From positions 1 through 21,840 of the forward strand of contig JAYZEG010000014.1 of assembly GCA_036337435.1 (NCBI GenBank): a stretch of DNA of 21,840 bases, in the 5' to 3' direction. Shown one piece after another: positions 1 to 14,065 of this stretch. Position 1 is the first letter of the stretch. Each line of letters starts with the position of its first letter. The notes below the pieces were generated by a model. The model had not been told where the DNA came from. It searched no databases and was given only the letters and a program-made list of their open reading frames with translations. Both the position numbers and the translations under genes were made by a program. The stretch comes from Myxococcota bacterium. Lineage in GTDB: Bacteria > Myxococcota_A > Bradymonadia > UBA7976 > UBA1532.

Positions 1-203
1 GCACCACCGGCACCGCCTTCAGCGCCAGCACCACCGGCACCGCCCGCAGCACCAGCACCACCGGCGCCGCCCTCAGCACCAGCACCACCGGCGCCGCCCG
101 CAGCACCAGCGCCACCGGCACCGCCTTCAGCGCCAGCACCACCAGCACCGCCCTCAGCACCAGCACCACCGGCGCCGCCCTGAGCGCCAGCGCCACCGGC
201 ACC
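1..203. repeat. 27-bp coding tandem repeat (7 full units plus a partial), encoding GGAGGAGA(E/A/Q)
   Basis: Units of the form gcaccaccggcaccgccttcagcgcca start at 1, 28, 55, 82, 109, 136 and 163, with a partial unit at 190-203. Variation is mostly synonymous. Confidence 0.9.
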
Positions 204-281
204 ACGGCTAGATGTTTCGTCATTGCCGCAGCCGAATAGGGCTAAAGCGAATAAGATTGTAAGTGTATTGAATTTTGACAC
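1..281 (-). CDS. Lipoprotein with Gly/Ala-rich repeat linker (N-terminal part; runs off the left edge)
   Basis: Manual translation from GTG at 281 gives MSKFNTLTILFALALFGCGNDETSSRGAGGAGAQGGAGGAGAEGG... It has a signal peptide with lipobox LFG-C and a GAGGGG Shine-Dalgarno at 287-292. Absent from the ORF track because no stop lies in the window. Confidence 0.8.
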   Translation of the reverse strand, partial: MSKFNTLTILFALALFGCGNDETSSRGAGGAGAQGGAGGAGAEGGAGGAGAEGGAGGAGAAGGAGGAGAEGGAGGAGAAGGAGGAGAEGGAGG

Positions 282-1587: not shown

Positions 1588-1818
1588 TCATCTCCGATTG
1601 ATCCGTTCGGAAATAACGCAGGTGAGAAGTGAACGCAGTGCTCGCGAATCAAGACCGACCAGCAAATATCCGCCATTCTCGGCGATTCGATTCATCCCCA
1701 TCGACAGCAGATGAGCTTTTTCGAGCGGGCTCGGCACCTGTCCTCGATGCACTTGCTTTAACAGTGATTTCAGATCGTCCGTCGGCACCTCAGTTAGGCC
1801 AAGTCCAGCGCTTTGCAT
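1588..1818 (-). CDS. Small helical hypothetical protein (76 aa), last gene of the pup-like operon
   Basis: ATG preceded by AGGAG, 10 nt after the yhhN-family stop. Amphipathic helical pattern ending GLDSRALRSLLTCVISER. Confidence 0.7.
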   Translation of the reverse strand: MQSAGLGLTEVPTDDLKSLLKQVHRGQVPSPLEKAHLLSMGMNRIAENGGYLLVGLDSRALRSLLTCVISERINRR

Positions 1819-1828
1819 ACCTGTTCTC

Positions 1829-2467
1829 CTAAGTCACACAGGCATAGCCAAACACAAGTTGAGAGCCAAAATAAAGGGGAATACCCCAAAGCTTGTTTGC
1901 AAAACCCGCCGCCTTGAAACGGCCGCGTGCGACCGAGATATCAGAGAGCCAGAACATCATTGCAGCCACGGGTAAAATTGAACTCTTCGTTCCAAAAGCC
2001 AAAGTGACCATCGCTGTAATGACAAGAACATAAGCGGCCACGGCACTCTTGAGTTTGGGTGGTACATCTGGGCGCAGCCACTTGAATATAAGCCAAGCAA
2101 CGAGGGAGAATCCCAGCAATGCGACCCCCGCATGAGTCCAATTTATGCCGTAGACGAGACAGGCTCCAGCGTAGGCTAGGTGACCTAGGAGAAATGAGCC
2201 CAAGCCCATGGCAAAGTAGGGGCCGACCTTTCTTGGGATCAGAAACAGATCACCGATTACGGAAAAAACGAGCCCCACAAGAATCCACTGACCGAACGCC
2301 GTTTGCCATGCGCCAACTGCTAAAGCAGCCAAAACAAAGGCGATGGCGGCCACGGGTTTGAATAGCCAGCGGAGAGGTTGGTTGTCGGTCTTCTCCGCCC
2401 AGAGCAAGCCTATCACCGCTGCAGCTGTGATGGCCGACAAGCCAATAAACTGTTCTTGCATCCCCAT
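1829..2467 (-). CDS. YhhN/TMEM86-family lysoplasmalogenase-like integral membrane protein
   Basis: Multiple TM helices with family motifs FKP, GLVFSVIGDLFL, GLGSFLLGHLAY, FWLSDISVA and LYFGSQL. ATG at 2467 overlaps the upstream TGA (TGATG). Confidence 0.85.
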   Translation of the reverse strand: MGMQEQFIGLSAITAAAVIGLLWAEKTDNQPLRWLFKPVAAIAFVLAALAVGAWQTAFGQWILVGLVFSVIGDLFLIPRKVGPYFAMGLGSFLLGHLAYAGACLVYGINWTHAGVALLGFSLVAWLIFKWLRPDVPPKLKSAVAAYVLVITAMVTLAFGTKSSILPVAAMMFWLSDISVARGRFKAAGFANKLWGIPLYFGSQLVFGYACVT

Positions 2468-4161
2468 CAATCCCCTCTGTGCTTCGGGTCGTGGAGCACT
2501 ATGACCTGCTTTTTTGTCCCTCTTTTGAGACGCACACTCAACCAACTTGTGGAGGGATCGCTGCGTCCTGCCAAGTGCCGAATGAGTTGCCCACGATTGA
2601 ATGCAGGTGTATCTCCGGGTGGCTGATCAAATGCACGCTCAACAGCCTGAGGGTCGGTGAGTCGGACCACCAAGTTATTGTCAAGAAGTAAAGCCGCATA
2701 GCCCGATCCCAGCTCATGATATTTTAAGTCGATTTTCTTCTTTGAGCCCAGTGTCAGGTCATCACCAGCCTCGTTAAGCAAGTGCAATTTTGTCACCCAG
2801 TCGAGTTGTCCAATCAGCATTTCCGGGCGATGGATGAGTGCGTCGAGGGTGTCACTCCATCGTGTGATGATCTCGTTTGCTTCAAGTCGTACGACGGCAG
2901 ATTCGCGCACGAAGGCCTTCGCCCTGTCTAAGTACCACCGTTGCAAGTCAAGCCCGGTCCAATAATCGCCATTTTTCATGTAGACGGCGATCCTTAATTC
3001 AGGGTCTGCGTTAATCGCATGGAGCGCATCCAGGCAATTGGAGACCTGGGGAGCATCGTCGATGAAACCCGCTTCGATCATATCAATGACCAGTAGGGTT
3101 GACCCCAATTTTAGAAATTCGGCGACCTCCAAGCGGTTAGCATCGCTCAGGCCGAGCTGGAGTCGGATCGTGGGCTTGAACAGCAGGCTAATCAGTTCAA
3201 ATTCGCCAAGTAAGGGCAATATTACACATTTGAGTATGTGCCCGTGATCGAAAATACTGTGACCAGACATGGTGAAAGGAGCCCGGTCTATTCGAGAAAT
3301 CCCGAGAGCCTTCTCACTCAGTTGAAATGAATAGTAACTGTCCAGCGTGCCGGTTCCGGACAGAATTGCACGGCTGCTTAGAAAACCCGACATCAGGTGC
3401 CGAAAACGCCGGAATACGATGTGTTTGAGTGCAAAGTGAAGCGGCAGTTGCGCCGGCGCGAGAATGATGGATTGCGCAGCAAAGTCGAGCCGCGCCATCA
3501 AGACTCGGCCGGGATGAGGCTGACGGGGGTCTTCATCACCTGCCGGAGTCCCACCCTGGGTGTTTCGTCCACTCAGGCGCAGCACGGCTTCACCCAAATA
3601 TAGACCCAGTGAGACCACCAGCGTAGGGATCAAAACTGCTAACATCAACAGAGCAGCGATAGGTAACCAGGCAACGCAGACCACTGCGATCGCTCGGAAA
3701 GCCAATCCTTTGATGCCTGCTGGTACTTTCACTTCGTAATTTTCCTGCGGTCCGTAGATCTGTCCATCCACGTCTCGCGCATTGCGTAGCAACGTGAGCT
3801 CGCCCGAGTAACCGAAACGACATAAGTGATCTTCGGCCAGCGGGATTGCCCGCAAAAGAAGGTCTTCTTGCGCCCTTTGGTAGACCAACAACTGACTCGG
3901 CCCTCGACATTCTGGCGTCGCACACTCCACTAGACCTGCTGCTGGATGCGTCGGCTTGTGCTCATAAGAAACACTGCCGCCGTTGGCACAGAACATGCGA
4001 TGCTGGCCATCTTTTCGTTTGGCTGGAATTGTGGACGTGCAGACGCTGATGGCGTCGGCCAAGGCAAGGTAGATCTCTTCATTGTCCGGTCGTGGACAAC
4101 CCAGTGTCGGTCGAAAACGAATCGCATACTCATTTTCGAGGCCTGTCAGGCGAGACAGCAC
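2467..4161 (-). CDS. Divergent PafA/Dop-family (Pup-protein ligase-like) protein with an internal hydrophobic insert
   Basis: Motifs colinear with PafA: GLENEY (GhExE), NGG, ECATPEC, RNxxDxxGxxYGxQENY, FLSSRAILSGTG, FQLSEKA, RLQLGLSDAN, LKLGSTLLVIDMIE, LDWVTK, IDLKYHELG, PPGDTPAFNRG and a terminal W...DP. Lies 6 nt downstream of a GGE-ending peptide gene. Confidence 0.9.
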   Translation of the reverse strand: MLSRLTGLENEYAIRFRPTLGCPRPDNEEIYLALADAISVCTSTIPAKRKDGQHRMFCANGGSVSYEHKPTHPAAGLVECATPECRGPSQLLVYQRAQEDLLLRAIPLAEDHLCRFGYSGELTLLRNARDVDGQIYGPQENYEVKVPAGIKGLAFRAIAVVCVAWLPIAALLMLAVLIPTLVVSLGLYLGEAVLRLSGRNTQGGTPAGDEDPRQPHPGRVLMARLDFAAQSIILAPAQLPLHFALKHIVFRRFRHLMSGFLSSRAILSGTGTLDSYYSFQLSEKALGISRIDRAPFTMSGHSIFDHGHILKCVILPLLGEFELISLLFKPTIRLQLGLSDANRLEVAEFLKLGSTLLVIDMIEAGFIDDAPQVSNCLDALHAINADPELRIAVYMKNGDYWTGLDLQRWYLDRAKAFVRESAVVRLEANEIITRWSDTLDALIHRPEMLIGQLDWVTKLHLLNEAGDDLTLGSKKKIDLKYHELGSGYAALLLDNNLVVRLTDPQAVERAFDQPPGDTPAFNRGQLIRHLAGRSDPSTSWLSVRLKRGTKKQVIVLHDPKHRGD

Positions 4162-4167
4162 AGGGGC

Positions 4168-4329
4168 TTATTCGCCTCCAGCCGGAACGCGAGTCTCCTG
4201 GATATACTCGTTGGCTTTGTCCTTGGCATCTTCTCGAATTTGCCGGAGGACCATTTGTAGTCGTGTGTCTGCTGTGCCGGACTCAGGCGTCTCAGGTGTC
4301 TCAGGTGTCTGTTTTTTTGAATCTTGCAT
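4168..4329 (-). CDS. Pup/UBact-like small protein modifier (53 aa, C-terminal GGE)
   Basis: Manual translation: MQDSKKQTPETPETPESGTADTRLQMVLRQIREDAKDKANEYIQETRVPAGGE*. GAGGAAGG Shine-Dalgarno at 4335-4342. Disordered N-terminus, central helix, GGE end, directly upstream of the PafA-like gene. Not listed in the ORF track, which shows nothing under 60 aa. Confidence 0.85.
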   Translation of the reverse strand: MQDSKKQTPETPETPESGTADTRLQMVLRQIREDAKDKANEYIQETRVPAGGE

Positions 4330-4413: not shown

Positions 4414-5154
4414 ATGCCGGTCGCTTTTATTGCGGGTGCCACAGGGTTGACGGGCCGTTCGGTTGTTCAGTTTCTACGGGATGCAAAGGTCGACGTCGTC
4501 GCACACATTCGTCCCGATTCCAAACGGCTTGACGAATGGACAGATCGTTTTGAAGCACTGGGTGCAACCGTATCGACTGCCGAGTGGACGGTCGACGCAA
4601 TGTCAGCGGCATTTCAAACCATAAAACCCGATATGGTGTTCGCCTTGCTGGGGACGACAAAGAAGCGGAGCCGCGCAGGTGATGGAGATTATGATTCAGT
4701 GGACTATGCCCTCACGGCGCTGCTTATCGAGTCGGCTGAGATGGCCGCTGCATCATCACGGTTTATCTACCTCTCGGCCGTTGGAGTGACCCCAACAACC
4801 CGCAATAGATATTTGTCAGCAAGAGCGAAGGTTGAAGCCCGTTTGGCTCAATCGCCCCTCGCACACTGTATCGCAAGACCCTCCTTCATCTTGGGCCAAC
4901 GTGATGATAAGCGGCCACTTGAGGCATTGGGCGCGCCTTTGCTCGACGGTCTACTCGCAACAATGGGTCTTCTCGGAGGTAGACGTTGGTCCGACCAATA
5001 TCGCTCAATGCTGGGGACAGACTTAGCAATGGCCTTGACTGAGGCTGCGCTCGCCGGCCTAGACGGGATCTTGGATGTCCCTCGGATCATCGCTGCCAAG
5101 GGTCGATATCAAGACCGAATAGCGAACTGGGACAATGAATCCGAGACGAACTAG
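4414..5154 (+). CDS. Atypical SDR / NAD(P)-binding Rossmann protein (YraR/TIP30-like)
   Basis: Start MPVAFIAGATGLTG at ATG 4414 after GAGAGGG. Motifs LGTT, VDY, YLSAVG, YxxxR/K and RPSFILG. Confidence 0.85.
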   Translation: MPVAFIAGATGLTGRSVVQFLRDAKVDVVAHIRPDSKRLDEWTDRFEALGATVSTAEWTVDAMSAAFQTIKPDMVFALLGTTKKRSRAGDGDYDSVDYALTALLIESAEMAAASSRFIYLSAVGVTPTTRNRYLSARAKVEARLAQSPLAHCIARPSFILGQRDDKRPLEALGAPLLDGLLATMGLLGGRRWSDQYRSMLGTDLAMALTEAALAGLDGILDVPRIIAAKGRYQDRIANWDNESETN

Positions 5155-6756
5155 GCTATCGAGCTCCCCTGGACTTGCATCTATTTGCGCGAAGAGACAG
5201 GGCGATGTCTCGAGGCGTTCCAAAGCAGTGAAGGCTGCGTCAGTCAGCTCGAGTATGTCGAGCTCCCCATCACTCGCCCGTTTGACCACTAGGTTATGAC
5301 TCTTGAGGGGCAGTTCAGCCGGTAAGTGCTCGACGGACGCGATAATTTTAGGGATGTCGAAATCAAAATGAAGACGCTCAACACCAGGGGCAATGGTCCA
5401 TTGTGTCTTTCCACATGGGTTATCTGTGTACAGCGCGTCGTGCACAATCGATGTGCTGCTTGGATGGATGAATGCGGTCTCATAGCGAGCGACCTCAGCG
5501 GTAGGCCCTGGGGCCTCTTCGTTAAGAAATTCAGCAAAACGGCGGGCTAAGGGGACTCGGCTCGGGACATCCTGTTCAGCAAACGCAACCACAACAGGAG
5601 GCAAGGCATCGCCCAGTATCGCTGTCGTATTTGGAAGCGTTTCTTCCAATCCATCGGTAATTTGTTCGATGGAACCGCCCAATCGGTTCAAAATTGAATA
5701 GCCAAGGGAGAAAACGTCATCGTAAGCGGGGAGGTACCACTCGTCGCAGAGCGCGCTGTAGGTTATGGAACTATACCTGAGTGCCTCGTCCGAACTGTCC
5801 GCCAGGCGTCTGATTATTTTTTCAAGTTCCTTGCGACACTCGCCATCACACTCCATGGCGATCACCAATAAGCGCCACGCTACATCTTGGCAGATCCAGG
5901 TCGAACGGTCACCGATCAGAGGGCGGGCTTCACCACGGCCGGTCATTGCATTCATGATTTCTATGACCCGTGCTTCTTGGGCATCTAAATCTCTAAAAGC
6001 CCCTTGGTCTGGTCCTAAGAACAAATGTCGAAACCATTGGAATTCGTCCGATTCTAACCGAAGTCGATTGGCGGCAGTCCAGGTCAGTGCATCATTGTTG
6101 AGGTCGATGGTTGCGTATCGATGCCCTGTTGGAATACCGGTCCGACGTGTGCGTGCGATGGCGGCAAGCTCGCGATCGACAAATGCGAGGCCATCTTCGA
6201 GAAATTTCGTATCCTTTTTTACAATTGGCCCGCCAGACGCAGCCTGTTCACACGCAGGACAACGCAGACCGAAGAGGTCGCCGAGGCCGGCATGTTGCTC
6301 GCATCGGCGGAGATCGATCTCATCAAAGAAATACCATAGGGCTACGGGAAGCAGTTCCGACAAGCGCGCTGACAATGAATGGAACAAAGGCGATGCGTTG
6401 GGCCTCCAGGCGAAGCCGATGAGCGCATGGCATAATTCATGAGCGGTCCATTTCGGATCATGGCTTGGATGAAAACTGCCGATGGGATTATCGTATCTGA
6501 AATGTCGATACTTATGTTCGACTAAGTGGCCTGCTTTCCAATAAGGCTGAGCAGAAAATCCGGGTTGATTTGGAGGACACCATGCTTCGGGCAGAGGCAT
6601 ATGATGCCGGTATTCGAAATGGCTGAGGAACAACCCACTTGCTTGAGCAAGGTCTCCGATCACGTGCGCTGCTGATGAACGAGTCAACTCGTGGGCTGGG
6701 GCACCAATATTTGAGAAAGCGGTCATAGGCTGTTTATCTGACCATTGACAGCTCAT
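5059..6756 (-). CDS. Hypothetical protein with HEXXH metal site, CxxH/CxxC insert and DUF2063/HvfC-like C-terminal region
   Basis: 565-aa ORF. HELCH at aa 106-110 with a downstream Glu (LSELL), and C152/H155/C166/C169. The C-terminal segment LEETLPNTTAILG...RFAEFL...AEVARYETA resembles DUF2063. The start may be 6726. Confidence 0.7.
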   Translation of the reverse strand: MSCQWSDKQPMTAFSNIGAPAHELTRSSAAHVIGDLAQASGLFLSHFEYRHHMPLPEAWCPPNQPGFSAQPYWKAGHLVEHKYRHFRYDNPIGSFHPSHDPKWTAHELCHALIGFAWRPNASPLFHSLSARLSELLPVALWYFFDEIDLRRCEQHAGLGDLFGLRCPACEQAASGGPIVKKDTKFLEDGLAFVDRELAAIARTRRTGIPTGHRYATIDLNNDALTWTAANRLRLESDEFQWFRHLFLGPDQGAFRDLDAQEARVIEIMNAMTGRGEARPLIGDRSTWICQDVAWRLLVIAMECDGECRKELEKIIRRLADSSDEALRYSSITYSALCDEWYLPAYDDVFSLGYSILNRLGGSIEQITDGLEETLPNTTAILGDALPPVVVAFAEQDVPSRVPLARRFAEFLNEEAPGPTAEVARYETAFIHPSSTSIVHDALYTDNPCGKTQWTIAPGVERLHFDFDIPKIIASVEHLPAELPLKSHNLVVKRASDGELDILELTDAAFTALERLETSPCLFAQIDASPGELDSLVRLGFIVPVRYSVLISTLGSDDPRDIQDPV

Positions 6757-6869: not shown

Positions 6870-7646
6870 ATGTCCGGGGTGACTTTTGACATTGAGGGCG
6901 GAATCGCACAGATCACGCTCAATCGGCCGACCTTCAAGAACGCGATTGATCAAGGGGTTATCGACGGCCTAGAGCGGGCGATCGATGATATTGATCAGCG
7001 GGACGGTCTGAGGGGCGTCTTAGTCACTGGGGAGGGCCAGGACGCTTTTTGTTCGGGTGGGGATCTAAAATGGTTGGCCGAACTTAAGAACCCTGCGGAC
7101 GGCGCCAGGATGTCGACCCGAATGCAAGGTGTGCTCCACGCGTTGTCAAAACTCCCTATTCCTGTCGTTGCGGTCTTGAATGGTTATGCTTTGGGTGGCG
7201 GTGCAGAGCTTGCCCTCGCATGCGATTTCAGGGTGTTCGAACAACATTCATTCATGAGCTTCAAACAAACGCAGGTTGGTTTGACAACCGGCTGGTCTGG
7301 TGGCTGGCGCCTGGTTGATTTGCTCGGCTATTCCCGCGCTCTTGAACTGGCGATGACGGGTGAAAAAGTCAGTGCCGCCCGCGCTTATGAGCTGGGTCTC
7401 TGCAATCGAATTGCTGATCAAGGCGAGGGTATGCGGATTGGTCTGGACTTCCTCGCGCGAATGAATCGAGGGGCACTGACGGCGAACGTTGCGACAAAAC
7501 GCCTTTTCCAAAAGGCGACCCGGTCCAGTCTAGAAGACAATATGCGTTTGGAAAACCAGTTGTTTGAAACCCTTTGGGGTGCGCCGGACCACCGGGAGGC
7601 ATTGGAGGCATTTAAGCAAAAGCGACGGCCAGCTTTTCAGTCGTGA
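6870..7646 (+). CDS. Enoyl-CoA hydratase/isomerase (crotonase) family protein, ECHDC1-like
   Basis: Motifs ITLNRP, AFCSGGDL, NGYALGGGAELALACDFR and MTGEKVSA. GAGGGAGGGAGAG Shine-Dalgarno upstream. Confidence 0.9.
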   Translation: MSGVTFDIEGGIAQITLNRPTFKNAIDQGVIDGLERAIDDIDQRDGLRGVLVTGEGQDAFCSGGDLKWLAELKNPADGARMSTRMQGVLHALSKLPIPVVAVLNGYALGGGAELALACDFRVFEQHSFMSFKQTQVGLTTGWSGGWRLVDLLGYSRALELAMTGEKVSAARAYELGLCNRIADQGEGMRIGLDFLARMNRGALTANVATKRLFQKATRSSLEDNMRLENQLFETLWGAPDHREALEAFKQKRRPAFQS

Positions 7647-7664
7647 TGGCTTTGGTACGGATAG

Positions 7665-7696
7665 GCCCAAGAATCACGGTCTCGGGCTGGTTTTTT
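7665..7696 (+). terminator. Possible intrinsic terminator after the crotonase gene
   Basis: Imperfect stem GCCCAAGA/TCTCGGGC followed 3 nt later by TTTTTT. Confidence 0.25.
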
Positions 7697-7749
7697 CCGA
7701 CCGCGAAGTCTATGGTTTAACACTGCAGTCTTGGAGGGGAATCCGATTC

Positions 7750-9126
7750 ATGAGTACCGATTTCGTTAGGCAAGTGGTTGAAGACGCGCGGCACGCGTTC
7801 AACAGTGGAAAGACGCGCCCCTATACCTGGCGTATCGGCCAATTACGGGCGCTTCACACGATGATCGAAGACAATTCCGACGTTATATTAGCCGCGCTCA
7901 AGGCCGACCTGGGAAAACCAATGTTCGAAGCTTGGGCGGCTGAAATAGGAGTGGCTCTCCGGGATATAAAAGAGGTGATGAGTGCGTTGAAGGGGTGGAT
8001 GAAACCAGAGAAAGTATCCACTCCACTGGTGACCCAACCAGGCAGTTCGAGGCGCTATAAGGATCCGTTGGGTGTCGTGCTTATCATCGCGCCCTGGAAC
8101 TATCCTTTCAATCTCGTGATAACACCCCTTATAGGCGCTATCGCTGCAGGCAATGCGGCTGTCATCAAACCATCTGAAATTTCATCCAATACATCCAAGA
8201 TGATCGCGGATTTGCTGCCACGCTATGTCGATAATGATGCCATCAAGATCGTGGAGGGCGGGGTTCCTGAGACAACGGCATTGCTGGTCGAACGCTTCGA
8301 CCACATCTTTTACACCGGCAACGGGCATGTGGCCCGTATCATTATGGCCGCCGCCGCCAAGCACTTGACGCCAGTGACCTTGGAATTAGGCGGGAAAAGC
8401 CCCGTCTATATAAACAAAACAGCGGATTTAAAGACAACGGCACGGCGGGTTGCTTGGGGCAAGTTCACCAACGCTGGTCAGACGTGTATCGCTCCGGATT
8501 ACGTTCTCATTGACCACGAAATACACGATGAATTTCTGGCGCGACTGGCAGCCGCTATCCATGATTTTTATGGTGAGAACCCCCAGCAGACGCCCAGTTA
8601 CGCTCGGATTGTTAGCGAGCGACATCACCAAAGATTAAGCCGCCTATTGGGCAGTGGCGAGGCGGTAATTGGCGGGCAGACAGACCCAGCAGACCGCTAT
8701 ATCGCACCGACTGTCTTAAAAAACGTCGTGCCGGAAGACCCGGTTATGAGCGAGGAGATCTTCGGCCCGATCCTGCCGGTGCTTTCAATCGACGGTGCTG
8801 AAGCCGCCATTCGGTTCATTAATGGGCGTGACAAGCCCCTTGCTCTATACATTTTCACGGGAGACGACGCTGTCGCGGAGTCCATTCTCTCCCGGACATC
8901 CTCAGGGGGGGCGACTGTAAACCACGTGATGCTGCATTATGCTGTGAGCAGCCTCCCGTTCGGAGGCGTCGGTGAGAGCGGGATGGGCGCGTACCATGGA
9001 CAGGCTAGTTTTGACACCTTCACCCACACGAAATCGGTTCTCAAAAAGCCGTTTATCGTAGACCCGTCAATTATGTATCCACCCTATAACGAATCGAAGG
9101 AGAAGTGGCTGCGGCGCCTGCTCTAA
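7750..9126 (+). CDS. NAD(P)-dependent aldehyde dehydrogenase, ALDH3/fatty-aldehyde type
   Basis: Start MSTDFVRQ at ATG 7750 after GGAGGG. Motifs PWNYP, KPSE, FYTGN, LELGGKSP, NAGQTCIAPDY, EEIFGPILP, KPLALY and PFGGVGESGMGAYHG. Confidence 0.93.
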   Translation: MSTDFVRQVVEDARHAFNSGKTRPYTWRIGQLRALHTMIEDNSDVILAALKADLGKPMFEAWAAEIGVALRDIKEVMSALKGWMKPEKVSTPLVTQPGSSRRYKDPLGVVLIIAPWNYPFNLVITPLIGAIAAGNAAVIKPSEISSNTSKMIADLLPRYVDNDAIKIVEGGVPETTALLVERFDHIFYTGNGHVARIIMAAAAKHLTPVTLELGGKSPVYINKTADLKTTARRVAWGKFTNAGQTCIAPDYVLIDHEIHDEFLARLAAAIHDFYGENPQQTPSYARIVSERHHQRLSRLLGSGEAVIGGQTDPADRYIAPTVLKNVVPEDPVMSEEIFGPILPVLSIDGAEAAIRFINGRDKPLALYIFTGDDAVAESILSRTSSGGATVNHVMLHYAVSSLPFGGVGESGMGAYHGQASFDTFTHTKSVLKKPFIVDPSIMYPPYNESKEKWLRRLL

Positions 9127-9158
9127 AGAACACAGACGCACGCATCCTTTCAGCGTGA

Positions 9159-10577
9159 CTAGGCGTCGACAAACTCTACATAGTCGTATTCGATGGGCTT
9201 GCCCTCAATGCCCCGAGGTGGTGGAGCAATCCAATCTGCGAACTGTCCAGGTTCGGTGCATGGTTTCATCAGGCTCTGAACATAGCTCTTGTCGGCGGCG
9301 GTCGGTAGCCACTCATTACGGTGCGCTTGCCACTCATCTGCAGACATCCAATTGCCATCGATATCAAAATGCAAGCCTGCATAAATGCCTTGATGTCTGT
9401 AGAACCGCCGGTGGGGGAGGCGAAGCCGAACATCGCACCCCTCTTTTTTCAATGTTCGGTTCCAAACAGCCACAGTCTTTTCGCAATCTTCTACGTAGGC
9501 GTCACGCAGCACTTCGTTCATCGCTCGCCGTAGCGGCAAATCCTCGATTGTCGCTTTGCCATCATGAGAGTATCGAGTCAATTTGTAGTACTGGTCTAGT
9601 GCTAAGTGGTCGTCGTATAGACGCATTTCTTGGTCTCGCCCTTTGAGGCCAGCAGCGAAAAATGTCGCCGCGTTACTCGAATCTTCGCCCCCGAAAAGGT
9701 CCAAGGAAAGTGCATACCACAAATTGATGTGTCGCTGGACCATGTCTAAGGGAATCGCGCCAAGTTGTCTCGGATCGCCTTCTTTCATACGTTCGGCGGT
9801 TCGCTTGATGATGCGCGCCATGCCTGTTTGGCCCACAAACATATGATGGGCCTCCTCCGTCAACATGAAGGTGCATGTCCGCGCCAGAGGATCAAAACCA
9901 CTCTCAGAGAGCGCACGCAGCTGATATTTACCGTCACGGTCCGTAAACGTCGTGAAACAAAAGAAGTTAAGCCAGTCGCTGCATGGTTCGTTGAACGCAC
10001 CCAAAATGCGAGGACTGTCTACATCTCCACTGCGGCGTTCTAACAACTCCTCAGCTTCTTCTCGGCCATCTCGTCCAAAGTAGCGGTGGAGTAGGTAGAC
10101 CATCGCCCAAAGGTGCCGCCCCTCTTCCACGTTCACTTGGAAAAGATTGCGCAGGTCGTAGAGCGATGGACATGTTTGTCCGAGAAGCCGCTGTTGCTCG
10201 ACGGATGCGGGCTCAGTGTCGCCTTGCGTTACGATGATGCGCCGGAGGATATTGCGATACTCTCCAGGAACGGCCTGCCATGCGTCCTCGCCCATGTGGT
10301 CGCCGAAATTAACTTTCCGCTCACCGTCGAATGGCGTCAGAAAGATGCCCCAACGGTATTCGGGCATTTTGACGTAACCAAAGTTGGCCCAGCCATCACG
10401 CTCGACCGACACGGCGGTCCGCAAGAAAATCCGGTCCTCCTGAAAACCTTCTGGGCCCATTTCCATCCACCAATTGAGATAATCAGGTTGCCAGGCTTCC
10501 AACGCTCGCTGCAACCTCCGATCGTTGCTCAAGTCGACGTTATTCGGTATCCGCTCTTGATAATTTATATTGCCCAT
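9159..10577 (-). CDS. boxB: Benzoyl-CoA 2,3-epoxidase subunit B
   Basis: IPNNVDL N-terminus, YVKMPEYRWGIF, QGDTEPASVEQQ, di-iron ligands EEGRH and EEAHH, DRDGKYQL. Abuts boxC. Confidence 0.95.
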   Translation of the reverse strand: MGNINYQERIPNNVDLSNDRRLQRALEAWQPDYLNWWMEMGPEGFQEDRIFLRTAVSVERDGWANFGYVKMPEYRWGIFLTPFDGERKVNFGDHMGEDAWQAVPGEYRNILRRIIVTQGDTEPASVEQQRLLGQTCPSLYDLRNLFQVNVEEGRHLWAMVYLLHRYFGRDGREEAEELLERRSGDVDSPRILGAFNEPCSDWLNFFCFTTFTDRDGKYQLRALSESGFDPLARTCTFMLTEEAHHMFVGQTGMARIIKRTAERMKEGDPRQLGAIPLDMVQRHINLWYALSLDLFGGEDSSNAATFFAAGLKGRDQEMRLYDDHLALDQYYKLTRYSHDGKATIEDLPLRRAMNEVLRDAYVEDCEKTVAVWNRTLKKEGCDVRLRLPHRRFYRHQGIYAGLHFDIDGNWMSADEWQAHRNEWLPTAADKSYVQSLMKPCTEPGQFADWIAPPPRGIEGKPIEYDYVEFVDA

Positions 10578-12218
10578 TTACGTTCGCTCCCAATTGAATT
10601 GCGCCGAGGTCGGCTGCCCAAAGGCTTTTAGTGCTCCATGTTCTCCGACGGCGTTCGGCCGCTGAAAAATCCAATTCTGCCATGCCGAAAGTCGGCCAAA
10701 AATTTTCGTCTCCAATGTTTCCGGGCCGGCAAATCTGAGATTCGCCTCCATGCCGGTCAGGGCGTCGGGTGACATACTCGAGCGCTCCTCCAGAGCAACA
10801 CGAATCTCATCCTCCCAATCAATGTCATCGGGATTGAAGGTGACCAGCCCGAGGTCGTATGCGTCATAGGTCGGCAGCGGACCCCCGACAGTTTCGAGCG
10901 CACGACCCGTGGACTCAGGTTCACCGAGGAACCGCGTCTGCAAGCGACTTAATCCGTTACCCATCGGATACGCGCCACCGTTCATTGGTGTCAGCTCGAT
11001 AGCAACTTTTTCATCCGGGTCGTCCAACATGAAGAAACGGTCTGCTGCCAAGGCCAACTCATAGAGAGTCCCGACAAAGGCCGAATCTTCCGCTGCGAGG
11101 GCAAATATCGTCTTGGCCGTGTAGTCGAGTCGCTTGAGCGTTCGTTTGATGTAATGTCTCACTTCGTGAACGAACCAGTTGTCAGCAAACCGCTCTAACA
11201 AGTCGTCGATAGCAACAAGCGTCTTCGCATCGCCTTTTGTTTCCAGAACAACGCAGCCTATGTCCAGAAGATTGAGTCTCAGGTGGAGTAGGCAGTCGTC
11301 AAGTTCTCGAAATACCTGCAAAGGCCACCAGTGAGTCCCCGCCGCAACGATTTCATCCACCGATGCAGGTCCAATACTGTCCGGCCCACTCACGACAATG
11401 GTGGCTCGCCGCTTGGCATGGTCGACTTGCATGTCGACGAAGCCGTAGCGTCGGCTGTCGCTCTCATCGACTTCGACGCTAAGCGGCGTCCAATGAATGC
11501 CGCCCTCAGCCTGTTTGTCGGAATCGCCAGCCAAGATGTCGTCCACATGTTTCTGCACACCGGCCTCGAATTTCGAGAGTTTGTAGGTCGCATCGATAAG
11601 ACGCCACTCTACGGCTCGTTTTCCCCGTACACCTTCAGCCAGGCTTGAGAAGTGGTCTGCTAAGTCCCGTCGGACGCCGCGTTTGTCGACGACGCGTGTC
11701 AGACCGCCAGTGCCTGGCAGGACACCTAAGAGCGGAACTTCAGGGAGACTCACCGCTGAACTTCTGTCGTCGACCAAGATGATCTCGTCGCAGGCCAGGG
11801 CCAGTTCGTACCCACCCCCAGATGCCACTCCGTTACACGCTGCGATGTATTTCTGGCCGCTGACGCGACTGGCATCTTCAATAGACAGCCTGGTCTCGTT
11901 CGTGAACTTACAGAAATTCACCTTGAACGCGTGCGTGCTGCTGCTCAGCATGTTGATGTTGGCACCGGCACAGAAGATGCGGTCCTTTCCACTGGTCAAC
12001 ACCACAGCTTTGACAGCGGGGTGTTCGAATCGGAGCCGATTCACGGCATCCGCGAGCTCAATATCAACGAATATGTCGTAGCTGTTGAGCTTGAGAATAT
12101 AAGGTTTGTCCACAGACTCTTCTTCGATATCCATGGTCAGAGTCGCGACGTCACCGTCTACGCTCAACGTCCAGTGGCGATAGCTATCCGGATGAGTATC
12201 AAACCGTTCAATTTTCAC
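10578..12218 (-). CDS. boxC: 2,3-epoxybenzoyl-CoA dihydrolase (benzoyl-CoA-dihydrodiol lyase)
   Basis: Motifs YRHW, LKLNSYD, FCAGANINML, KVNFCKFTNETR, PEVPLLGVLPGTGG and GRLSAWQNWIFQRPNAVG. GGAGG spacing favours GTG 12218 over 12224. Confidence 0.95.
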   Translation of the reverse strand: MKIERFDTHPDSYRHWTLSVDGDVATLTMDIEEESVDKPYILKLNSYDIFVDIELADAVNRLRFEHPAVKAVVLTSGKDRIFCAGANINMLSSSTHAFKVNFCKFTNETRLSIEDASRVSGQKYIAACNGVASGGGYELALACDEIILVDDRSSAVSLPEVPLLGVLPGTGGLTRVVDKRGVRRDLADHFSSLAEGVRGKRAVEWRLIDATYKLSKFEAGVQKHVDDILAGDSDKQAEGGIHWTPLSVEVDESDSRRYGFVDMQVDHAKRRATIVVSGPDSIGPASVDEIVAAGTHWWPLQVFRELDDCLLHLRLNLLDIGCVVLETKGDAKTLVAIDDLLERFADNWFVHEVRHYIKRTLKRLDYTAKTIFALAAEDSAFVGTLYELALAADRFFMLDDPDEKVAIELTPMNGGAYPMGNGLSRLQTRFLGEPESTGRALETVGGPLPTYDAYDLGLVTFNPDDIDWEDEIRVALEERSSMSPDALTGMEANLRFAGPETLETKIFGRLSAWQNWIFQRPNAVGEHGALKAFGQPTSAQFNWERT

Positions 12219-12279
12219 GAGCACCTCCCGAGCACGTCAACACAATACCGCTAACGGTAGCTTTAATTCAGAAAAAATC

Positions 12280-12327
12280 AAGCAGTATATTGCATGTTTA
12301 ATTGTTTTAGTGTGAAATATAGTGCAT
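12280..12327. promoter_or_regulatory. Two BoxR/BzdR-type operator palindromes in the boxC/boxR divergent region
   Basis: AAGCAGTATATTGCAT (12280-12295) and GTGAAATATAGTGCAT (12312-12327) both fit an ATGCAnTATAnTGCAT palindrome. TGCA boxes are the known BzdR/BoxR recognition element. Confidence 0.7.
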
Positions 12328-13144
12328 GAAAAGCGTCAAGGAAATCGTTGGAGAGCGTGTCCGGAATCGCCGCAAAGCGCAGTCATTGACCGTGGCAAAG
12401 CTGGCCGAACGCAGTGGATTGAGTGCGCGTTACATCCTCAGTGCGGAGAAAGGCCAGGCGAATTTATCCCTTGAAAAACTTGAACAACTCTGTGGAGCAC
12501 TCGACCTGTCTTTGAGTGTGGTTGTCTCCCGCGAAACCCGTGGAGAAATAGACGGACTCTTGTCTGCTCGCAGTGCAGATGAATTGGCCGAGATCGCTGA
12601 TTGGATTCGGGACAGATATGCCCGTGCGTCGAAGTCACTCGTGGCGTTATTGGGAGTGCGAGGTGCCGGTAAAACAGCGGTCGGCAAAGGCTTGGCGAGT
12701 CGCCTGGGTTTGCCCTTTGAAGAACTCGACAAGCGCATTGAGGAAATGGCCGAGCTTTCATTGGCTGAAATATTTGCGCTCCATGGCGAGCAATTTTATC
12801 GCAGGCTCGAGCATTCCGCACTGAACAATTTGGTTGATGACGGTCGCAAGCGAGTCTTGGCGACGGGAGGGGGATTGGTCACCGACCCTCAAAACTTTGC
12901 AAGACTCAAAAACACCGCGGTCACCATTTGGTTGAAAGCGACCGCTGAAGATCATTGGAGCAGAGTGATCGACCAAGGCGACAATCGACCAATGCGAGAC
13001 CACCCACAAGCCATGGCCCAGTTACGGCAGCTCATGGAGACCCGAGAGCCGCTCTACGGGCAAGCCGACTACACCGTGCTCACAACGGGTCGACCCATCC
13101 ATGAAATCGTCGACGAAATCGTACAAATTTTTGGAGAATGCTGA
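12326..13144 (+). CDS. boxR: BoxR/BzdR-family regulator (XRE HTH plus shikimate-kinase-like benzoyl-CoA sensor)
   Basis: N-terminal HTH (LAERSGLSARYILSAEKGQANLSL), P-loop GVRGAGKT, ATGGG and QGDNRPM. Divergent from boxCB. Confidence 0.9.
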   Translation: MKSVKEIVGERVRNRRKAQSLTVAKLAERSGLSARYILSAEKGQANLSLEKLEQLCGALDLSLSVVVSRETRGEIDGLLSARSADELAEIADWIRDRYARASKSLVALLGVRGAGKTAVGKGLASRLGLPFEELDKRIEEMAELSLAEIFALHGEQFYRRLEHSALNNLVDDGRKRVLATGGGLVTDPQNFARLKNTAVTIWLKATAEDHWSRVIDQGDNRPMRDHPQAMAQLRQLMETREPLYGQADYTVLTTGRPIHEIVDEIVQIFGEC

Positions 13145-13165: not shown

Positions 13166-14065
13166 ATGAATGCAAAAAACTTACAAAAGAAGTCGATGAC
13201 ATCACCCAGGCCATTTCTCAAATGGGCGGGTGGGAAGCGGGCGCTGATGGACGATATCATGGCCCGCTTGCCTGATGGCCAAATCGAACTCTATATCGAA
13301 CCTTTTTTGGGTGGTGGTGCTGTTTTCCTAGAACTCGCTCGCCAAGGCCGAATCAAGCGAGCAATTCTCAACGACCGCAATCCTGAGTTGGTTCATACCT
13401 ACAGAATGGTCAGAGATAAGCCAAACGAACTCATAGACGCCGTTTATCAGTGGACCCCCGATGAAGAAACATACTATGCGGTGAGAGCACTCGACGGCCT
13501 TGAACTGTCGGATGTAGACCGGGCAGCTCGGGTCATTTGGCTCAATCGCCTCTGCTTCAACGGACTCTATAGGATTAACCGAAGCGGTCAATTCAATGTG
13601 CCTTTCGGTAAGTACAAGAAACCCAGATTAGTCGATGTTGACAATCTGCACGAAGTGAGTCGGGCACTACAGAATGTGACTCTCTACGACTTGGACTTCG
13701 AGGCTTTGCTTGCTATGGCCGGACCGGGCTCAGTCGTCTATTGCGACCCACCTTATTGGCCGTTGAGTGATACCGCTTATTTTACAGCATACGATGGAAA
13801 CCCATTCAAGAGCGAAGACCAGGAACGCCTGGCGGAGCTTTTTGCTGGTCTCCGTAAACAGGGAGCTCAGGGCGTTTTGTCCAACTCCTGGACAGACAAT
13901 ACCGTCGAGTTGTATCGAAAACACGAACTTCATATCAGCCAAGTATTCTGCCGACGCAACATCAACCGAAACGCATCATCTCGAGGGCCGGTGCCAGAAA
14001 TTATGGTCTCGACACATCTGAAAGATGGTGCCGAATACGCCCTGCCGATCGCTGCTGACGCATAG
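13166..14065 (+). CDS. Dam-family (D12 class) DNA adenine methyltransferase
   Basis: Motifs PFLKWAGGK, EPFLGGG, LNRLCFNGLYRIN..GQFNVPFG and YCDPPY. The start may be 13196. Confidence 0.92.
   Translation: MNAKNLQKKSMTSPRPFLKWAGGKRALMDDIMARLPDGQIELYIEPFLGGGAVFLELARQGRIKRAILNDRNPELVHTYRMVRDKPNELIDAVYQWTPDEETYYAVRALDGLELSDVDRAARVIWLNRLCFNGLYRINRSGQFNVPFGKYKKPRLVDVDNLHEVSRALQNVTLYDLDFEALLAMAGPGSVVYCDPPYWPLSDTAYFTAYDGNPFKSEDQERLAELFAGLRKQGAQGVLSNSWTDNTVELYRKHELHISQVFCRRNINRNASSRGPVPEIMVSTHLKDGAEYALPIAADA

Follow-up and report, generated by a model that had tools for sequence, protein, structure and literature searches.

What would an enzyme of the pupylation family be doing in a membrane? The question is raised by a 21,840-nucleotide stretch of a Myxococcota genome (assembly GCA_036337435.1, contig JAYZEG010000014.1, positions 1 to 21,840; here called the window), in which a gene for a PafA/Dop-like carboxylate-amine ligase carries a long hydrophobic insert within its catalytic domain. 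Nearly all that is understood of pupylation concerns its role as a proteasome-targeting signal in actinobacteria. We read the present locus as a two-gene, proteasome-independent, membrane-anchored Pup-like tagging module and put the probability of this reading at roughly 0.75. The second of the two genes had been missed by the preliminary description of this DNA, which noted the enzyme without its tag: it encodes a Pup-like protein of 53 amino acids with a Gly-Gly-Glu end and is located at 4168..4329 on the minus strand, the strand of all features of the module given below.

The predicted tag ends in RVPAGGE, and its TAA stop codon falls 6 nucleotides before the start of the ligase gene; a Shine-Dalgarno-like gaggaagg lies upstream of its ATG. 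Related loci numbering 80 were drawn from 335 confirmed stretches of species-representative genomes, and the pairing was assessed at 80 loci, consisting of the window and 79 of the related loci (L026 was left out, being without upstream sequence). A frame ending in GGE is present upstream of the ligase in 78 of the 80, ending 0 to 257 nucleotides before it and mostly 4 to 30; the remaining two show a frame ending in SEGE immediately upstream and one ending in GGE 400 nucleotides upstream. The terminal residue of the GGE-type frames is Glu in all 78 and Gln in none. In an alignment of 34 tags of 46 to 68 amino acids, the N-terminal half is polar and variable, and about 28 amino acids at the C-terminal end are conserved, with the motif D[AS]...P..YL.ET.VP.GGE; the profile built from the alignment had exactly one match in the genome of the window (E value, 1e-15). 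With the tag gene beside it, the enzyme reads as a protein-tag ligase rather than as an orphan.

The ligase itself (2467..4161) is a protein of 564 amino acids with a GTG start, and its N terminus, MLSRLTGLENEY, agrees with the family consensus. It matches the Pfam family PF03136 (Pup_ligase) at 215.8 bits (cut-off, 25; E value, 1.5e-63) in two stretches with the insert between them. A word-indexed search returned 316 relatives, the best 120 of which are nearly all about 560 amino acids long; the named proteins among those 120 are annotated as "PafA2 family protein" and come from Myxococcota, and one relative (P0002) is 78% identical. Entries labeled Chondromyces crocatus and Pseudenhygromyxa are among these homologues. 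Cluster representatives searched exhaustively with HMMER yielded 2,291 matches at E values of 0.001 or less and 292 at 1e-30 or less. The AlphaFold2 model, made from an alignment of 111 sequences, has a mean predicted local distance difference test score (pLDDT) of 93.8 and a predicted template modeling score of 0.93, and a Foldseek search with it recovered the PafA/Dop fold (E value, 7.4e-25). It superposes on Dop (5lrt) with a Z score of 43.7 and a root mean square deviation of 2.5 Å over 426 residues and on PafA (4bjr_B) with a Z score of 38.0 and a deviation of 2.9 Å over 422 residues. Because the rest of the model superposes on both enzymes, the PafA/Dop core is, as modeled, intact apart from the insert. 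This superposition on PafA was among the checks proposed in the preliminary description, and in it the insert stands out from the core as a hairpin.

The position of the catalytic Asp of PafA is held here by a family-invariant Glu, E67 (3961..3963); the same position is Asp in 4b0t and Asn in 4bjr, the latter presumably a deliberate inactive variant. E79 and E84 are invariant or nearly so, as are R264 and R333 in sets of 20 and of 111 sequences. The active-site motif set is present in the ligase as defined in the available text of Iyer, Burroughs and Aravind (Biol Direct 2008, PMC2588565), with GhExE, the acids of strands 2 and 3, [HQ]x[NH], and the arginines. Within it, GLENEY (amino acids 7 to 12, 4126..4143) corresponds, by the definition in that text, to the GhExE motif for Mg/ATP on core strand 1, and Q139-E140-N141 (3739..3747), which directly precedes the insert, to [HQ]x[NH] on core strand 4; both are invariant or nearly so.

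The insert consists of 114 residues (amino acids 145 to 258, 3388..3729) and runs from QENYEV (139 to 144), in core strand 4, to the FLxSR helix, where GFLSSR occupies 259 to 264. An insert of about 110 amino acids with a long hydrophobic stretch had been described beforehand within 3400..3723, which corresponds to amino acids 147 to 254, and the description holds: all four of the sequence strings quoted in it lie at the residues where they had been placed, including a 38-residue apolar string at 157 to 194. A run of about 40 uncharged and strongly hydrophobic residues opens the insert, whose Kyte-Doolittle hydropathy (windows of 19 residues; threshold, 1.6) reaches a maximum of 2.84 over amino acids 150 to 194. 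On a Hessa-type scale, values under 1 kcal/mol occur only in windows within amino acids 157 to 190, where the lowest is −2.45.

Comparison with the soluble enzyme gives the size of the interruption. In the family profile (111 sequences), positions 2 to 144 align to residues 9 to 135 of Corynebacterium glutamicum PafA and positions 251 to 548 to residues 143 to 448, and PafA has 7 residues where the profile has about 106. The two flanking motifs of PafA, ENYLV and FLITR, are separated by about 14 residues in the profile alignment, in agreement with the spacing of about 15 given earlier. Alignment of orthologues, a further check that had been suggested, showed the insert to be kept in 111 of 111 homologues at lengths of 95 to 138 amino acids (median, 114), with the hydrophobic arm conserved. 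The position of R156 is Lys or Arg in 92% of these homologues, and the next ~42 positions of the query are almost without charge. A regular-expression motif scan covered 261 proteins, 240 with both flanking motifs and 21 without (fragments or motif variants); a window at or above the Kyte-Doolittle threshold lies within the spacer, whose median length is 117 amino acids, in 239 of the 240. The hydrophobicity of the insert is kept and its sequence is freely variable, a combination that at the sequence level is the signature of a segment predicted to face lipid.

The insert is drawn by AlphaFold2 as a long two-helix hairpin with helices at 149 to 164, 166 to 198, 217 to 249, and 251 to 263. Arm 1, the uncharged and strongly hydrophobic part (amino acids 157 to 198, 3568..3693), is modeled as the first two of these helices with a kink between them. 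It leads into a polar tip loop (199 to 216, 3514..3567), which is rich in Lys and Arg and then acidic across the family and is modeled with low confidence. The moderately hydrophobic return helix, arm 2 (217 to 263, 3373..3513), contains near-invariant P236 and K246 and a basic cluster of the RRxRR type at 251 to 255. In a second AlphaFold2 model, that of a Pirellulaceae homologue (pLDDT, 94.7), the hairpin recurs and bears a small helical cap at its tip. The distal arms, of about 30 residues each, are compatible with one membrane pass per arm, and the basic residues just past arm 1 fit a cytoplasmic location better. Simple hydropathy windows count anywhere from one to six segments across the 111 homologues. 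Arm 1 might also form a tight two-pass hairpin of its own, a form compatible with its Arg-rich flanks, but in both AlphaFold2 models it is a single continuous helix; by both models there would be at most two passes, with reentrant or monotopic arrangements as alternatives.

A long antiparallel two-helix arm of this kind is also what AlphaFold2 might be expected to draw if the insert were a soluble coiled coil, an oligomerization arm, or a dock for a partner rather than a membrane anchor, and an arm 2 of no more than moderate hydrophobicity, with conserved charges at R224 and K246, would suit such a role. The character of arm 1 makes this very improbable: some 42 consecutive positions are almost free of charge in 111 sequences, the mean hydropathy is typical of membrane helices, the helical hydrophobic moment of 0.10 to 0.18 describes a surface that is apolar all round, both flanks are Arg rich, and the sequence varies under conserved hydrophobicity. 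The earlier proposal of a membrane-embedded ligase has thus gained ground, in that anchoring through the insert is well supported in silico by the charge-free arm in 111 homologues, the hairpin in two models, and the intact core. Since the insert begins right after the strand that carries Q139-E140-N141, the active site can reasonably be placed close to the bilayer.

A second apolar segment, HILKCVILPLLGEFELISLLF (amino acids 308 to 328, 3178..3240), had been proposed to replace the RDEPHAD loop of PafA. The replacement stands insofar as the segment does align to the PafA stretch RPIINTRDEPHAD, although the alignment is weak there. Its description as a plain apolar stretch does not stand; the Kyte-Doolittle value over 309 to 328 is 1.89, but the segment is amphipathic family-wide, with K311 in 98% of the sequences and charged residues at 320, 322, and 326, and it is modeled as three short amphipathic helices. 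An extra membrane span at this place was ruled out by the amphipathic pattern across the family and by the three short helices of the model. The segment directly follows R301 and D305, two residues that are in contact with the tail of the tag in the model of the complex.

In three runs the predicted complex of tag and ligase scored 0.88, whereas the best of three controls scored 0.00; the pLDDT of the partner is at least 72, and at least 98% of the contacts are shared between runs. Among 157 solved complexes, 116 attain the mark applied to this score, as do 2 of 215 mismatched pairs. In the model, residues 39 to 53 of the tag are in contact with ligase residues 11 to 17, 67 to 69, 125 to 139, 301, 305, and 337, and the last 15 residues of the tag lie against E11, E67, Q139, R301, and D305. 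A helix formed by tag residues 20 to 36 lies in a groove of the C-terminal domain made by ligase residues 461 to 497.

We hypothesize that the 53-residue tag would be bound in the groove of the C-terminal domain of the ligase with its Gly-Gly-Glu end threaded through to the active site. If the chemistry follows that of PafA, ATP and Mg would serve to phosphorylate the terminal Glu on its side-chain carboxylate, and the activated Glu would then be joined to an amino group, most likely that of a protein lysine on the cytoplasmic side of the inner membrane. The 114-residue hairpin, which leaves the core right after the active-site strand, would keep the enzyme in the membrane. What we infer here is that the enzyme acts as a ligase, how its active site is oriented, what kind of target it has, and what tagging leads to.

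A number of observations weigh against a Pup-like tagging module and are gathered here. Searches of Pfam and NCBIfam with five tags, at E values up to 10, gave no meaningful match, to Pup or to any other family, and the profile of 34 tags, run against the PDB sequences, found no Pup chain, its best match being an unrelated protein at an E value of 0.52. The Pfam Pup model (PF05639) searched against the genome of the window gave a best E value of 0.36, inside large open reading frames elsewhere. As the tag has no similarity to Pup in hidden Markov model searches, its link to Pup rests on its size, its C terminus, its position, and the modeled interface. The calibration of the complex score is only rough, as the alignments were custom-made, and the score may mirror likeness to the solved PafA-Pup and Dop-Pup complexes (4BJR and 7OXY) rather than true binding. 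The ligase lies far below both NCBIfam equivalog cut-offs, with 150.5 bits against 551.3 for PafA (TIGR03686) and 134.2 bits against 492.3 for Dop (TIGR03688), and so is neither PafA proper nor Dop proper. The 4.38-Mb genome is 87% complete, and the absence of a proteasome from it is therefore to be read as "not found" rather than as proven. We also found no experimental study of any member of the module in the literature searched, which did not extend to subscription journals.

The affinities of the enzyme are a further point on this side, as several of them lean slightly toward Dop. A phmmer comparison gave an E value of 5.7e-29 for Dop and 1.3e-21 for PafA, the family profile scored 213.8 bits against Dop and 191.4 against PafA, and the structural Z score is likewise higher for Dop (43.7 versus 38.0). 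The ATPE at amino acids 81 to 84 is nearer to the STPE of Dop than to the ATAE of PafA, and single-copy planctomycete proteins are treated as related to both enzymes in the available part of Hecht et al. (2020, PMC7947786). It could be, then, that the enzyme is mainly a Dop-like hydrolase that removes the tag, or is bifunctional, rather than being a dedicated ligase. We consider this unlikely. Only one PF03136 gene was found in the 87%-complete genome, which would leave a pure hydrolase without a ligase to counteract; the tags already end in Glu in 78 of 78 cases, and a deamidase is not needed; and the N-terminal half forms one unbroken alignment with PafA but falls into separate stretches against Dop. 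In that half, 143 profile positions compare with 127 matching residues of PafA and about 158 of Dop, a comparison that bears on the question of a Dop-loop. Given a tag that ends in Glu from the outset and a single gene of the family, a ligase, possibly a bifunctional one, is more likely than a pure Dop-like hydrolase.

The proteasome independence of the tagging module was assessed in the same genome. A 20S proteasome was not found in the 87% that is available, the only match to the Proteasome family being HslV (274 bits; cut-off, 137), nor was Mpa, for which the best pup_AAA match (137.9; cut-off, 504.75) was a fragment of FtsH. A second PafA/Dop gene was also not found in this 87%-complete genome, and none of the 17 open reading frames scanned in the window is a proteasome or Mpa gene.

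Downstream of the ligase lies a gene that encodes a YhhN-family membrane protein (1829..2467), the ATG of which overlaps the ligase stop codon (TGATG); given this overlap, the tag, the ligase, and the YhhN gene probably form one operon. Beyond the window, a YhhN neighbor was found only in L006, a record labeled Bradymonadia, and in L087, from a genome of the same genus, both 50% identical. Elsewhere the downstream gene encodes a DUF456 protein (three planctomycete loci, L039, L042, and L046), a chromate transporter (L069), or something unrelated. The YhhN (window and L006), DUF456, and chromate transporter products are those among the downstream frames with 5 or 6 hydrophobic segments. Clustering of neighbors by BLAST in 77 loci showed no third conserved gene: only the tag was recurrent at position −1, and all other clusters had at most 6 loci. 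In this clustering, genes were called by a crude greedy choice of the longest open reading frame and frames under 70 amino acids were excluded, which left the tag cluster with only 15 members. As the downstream neighbor varies among loci, the conserved unit is the tag-ligase pair, and the YhhN neighbor is lineage specific.

This neighborhood bears on the nature of the acceptor. The same module could join its tag to the head-group amine of a lipid, for example phosphatidylethanolamine, and the tag would then become lipid anchored; the conjugation of Atg8 to phosphatidylethanolamine is a formal analogy. The active-site strand continues straight into the hydrophobic hairpin, and the amphipathic segment at 308 to 328, in place of the polar loop of PafA, lies beside the tag-tail contacts R301 and D305. 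Apart from the tag there is no conserved protein-coding neighbor across the 77 loci, and in the present lineage translation of the ligase is coupled to that of a YhhN-family gene. Members of the YhhN family have been reported as lysoplasmalogenases, and given the coupled gene the acceptor might instead be an ether-lipid relative. Were this so, the module would be the bacterial equivalent of Atg8 lipidation, serving to mark or remodel regions of the membrane. A lipid acceptor is nonetheless improbable in our judgment, as characterized members of the family all ligate to or cleave from protein lysines, and the YhhN linkage is limited to the present lineage (the window, its same-genus relative, and L006), with DUF456, a chromate transporter, or nothing membrane related downstream at the other loci. 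Improbable as well, taken jointly, are the proposal that the tag is joined to a lipid amine or an ether-lipid relative and its milder form, in which the single-copy membrane form would represent an ancestral, proteasome-independent pupylation. Protein lysines at the membrane are the default target of the tagging module, and a lipid amine is a low-probability one.

The records that carry the module are labeled Myxococcota (including Bradymonadia), Planctomycetota, Acidobacteriota, and Vulcanimicrobiota. Within the phylum of the window, 23 of 201 sampled genomes have a match at an E value of 1e-20 or less; six of these matches, that of the genome of the window included, are near full length, and most of the others cover residues 333 to 548 only, often as two adjacent paralogues. 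These pairs are probably canonical soluble PafA and Dop, which would place both forms within the phylum, where the membrane form is patchily distributed. Nearby pairs of PF03136-type genes that cover residues 333 to 548 only were seen in G173:C113, G198:C3, and G093:C24. At four loci (L010, L049, L076, and L016) the longest open reading frame containing the ligase extends to 750 to 994 amino acids, for which a fusion, an overextended start, or a misassembly is possible.

Some further features of the window stand out. An open reading frame of 76 amino acids (1588..1818, minus strand) lies downstream of the YhhN gene, and L087 has an 80-amino-acid counterpart in the same position (3843..4085, plus strand) with a similar N terminus, MQ.AGLGLTEVPTD.LK. 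Upstream of the module, 5059..6756 (minus strand) encodes a protein of 565 amino acids without a Pfam family and with a weak NCBIfam match to the RiPP-recognition family HvfC (26.4 bits; cut-off, 142), and a relative of this protein is also found upstream of the module in L006 and L087. The reading frame at 3..281 (minus strand) is open at the edge of the window and shows a lipoprotein-like signal (LFALALFGCGN) followed by many Gly/Ala-rich repeats of the GGAGGAGAEGG type, which continue past the end of the window. A cluster at 6870..12224 encodes an enoyl-CoA hydratase, an aldehyde dehydrogenase, a protein similar to PaaA/PaaC (25.1 bits, short of its cut-off), and a 548-amino-acid protein with a hydratase domain, a set that strikes us as reminiscent of aerobic benzoyl-CoA (box) catabolism. 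It is followed by a gene for a helix-turn-helix fused to a shikimate-kinase domain (12326..13144, plus strand) and, after that, one for a D12-class (Dam-type) adenine DNA methyltransferase (13166..14065, plus strand).

Set beside known systems, the module shares its superfamily fold with the GCS2/YbdK-type glutamate-cysteine ligases (1R8G and 1TT4; Z score, ~20), but these are small-molecule ligases that lack a C-terminal tag-binding domain, a tag gene, and a membrane insert. The tag resembles Pup (PF05639) in its small size, its polar and variable N-terminal half, its helix-forming C-terminal part, its Gly-Gly-Glu end, and the position of its gene beside that of the ligase, and differs from it in the lack of similarity detectable with hidden Markov models. 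Dop (4B0R and 5LRT from Acidothermus cellulolyticus; 9CKU from Mycobacterium smegmatis) is the best match of the enzyme in both sequence and structure and has the TPE motif in common with it, but is a soluble hydrolase that is needed where Pup ends in Gln, whereas the GGE tags here all end in Glu. With PafA of C. glutamicum (4B0T and 4BJR), the enzyme shares the fold, the GhExE, [HQ]xN, and Arg motifs, the alignment of the N-terminal half in one piece, and, by prediction, the groove of the C-terminal domain for the tag and the placement of its tail in the active site. PafA differs in being soluble, in having a catalytic Asp where the present family has an invariant Glu, in its polar RDEPHAD stretch, which is replaced here, and in having as partners Mpa and the 20S proteasome, both of which were looked for and not found in the present 87%-complete genome. 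A Pup-like tag and a membrane-embedded ligase for which no proteasome partner was found point to a second, membrane-centered use of pupylation chemistry.

In the available part of Hecht et al. (PMC7947786), the single-copy planctomycete proteins form an outgroup to PafA and Dop and partly align with the Dop-loop, and that part of the article does not discuss a membrane insert. The preliminary description treated the hydrophobic insert as a new feature, but the module is already in print: the available text of Iyer, Burroughs and Aravind (Biol Direct 2008, PMC2588565) predicts Pup ligases with transmembrane inserts in Plesiocystis pacifica and Rhodopirellula baltica. As described there, the module is unlinked to proteasome genes, adjoins Pup and a membrane-protein gene, and is defined by a hydrophobic insertion immediately C terminal to core strand 4 and an adjacent open reading frame of 50 to 90 amino acids ending in G[EQ]; the role proposed is anchoring at the cytoplasmic face and the tagging of membrane-associated proteins. 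The central observation has thus been in print as a prediction since 2008, and the present locus is a new member, probably of a Bradymonadia type. Like the module in that text, it has a ligase insert after core strand 4, an adjoining tag frame, no linkage to a proteasome, and a membrane-protein gene next door (YhhN here; varying or often absent among the other loci). It differs from the account in that text, which gives four transmembrane segments, in the two long kinked helices drawn by both AlphaFold2 models, and the present survey extends the range given there to records labeled Acidobacteriota, Vulcanimicrobiota, and Bradymonadia. What is added to the 2008 prediction is modest: a precise definition of the tag gene, with the linkage seen in 78 of 80 loci, a modeled picture of the anchor as a hairpin of two helices rather than four segments, and a predicted interface between the tag and the ligase.

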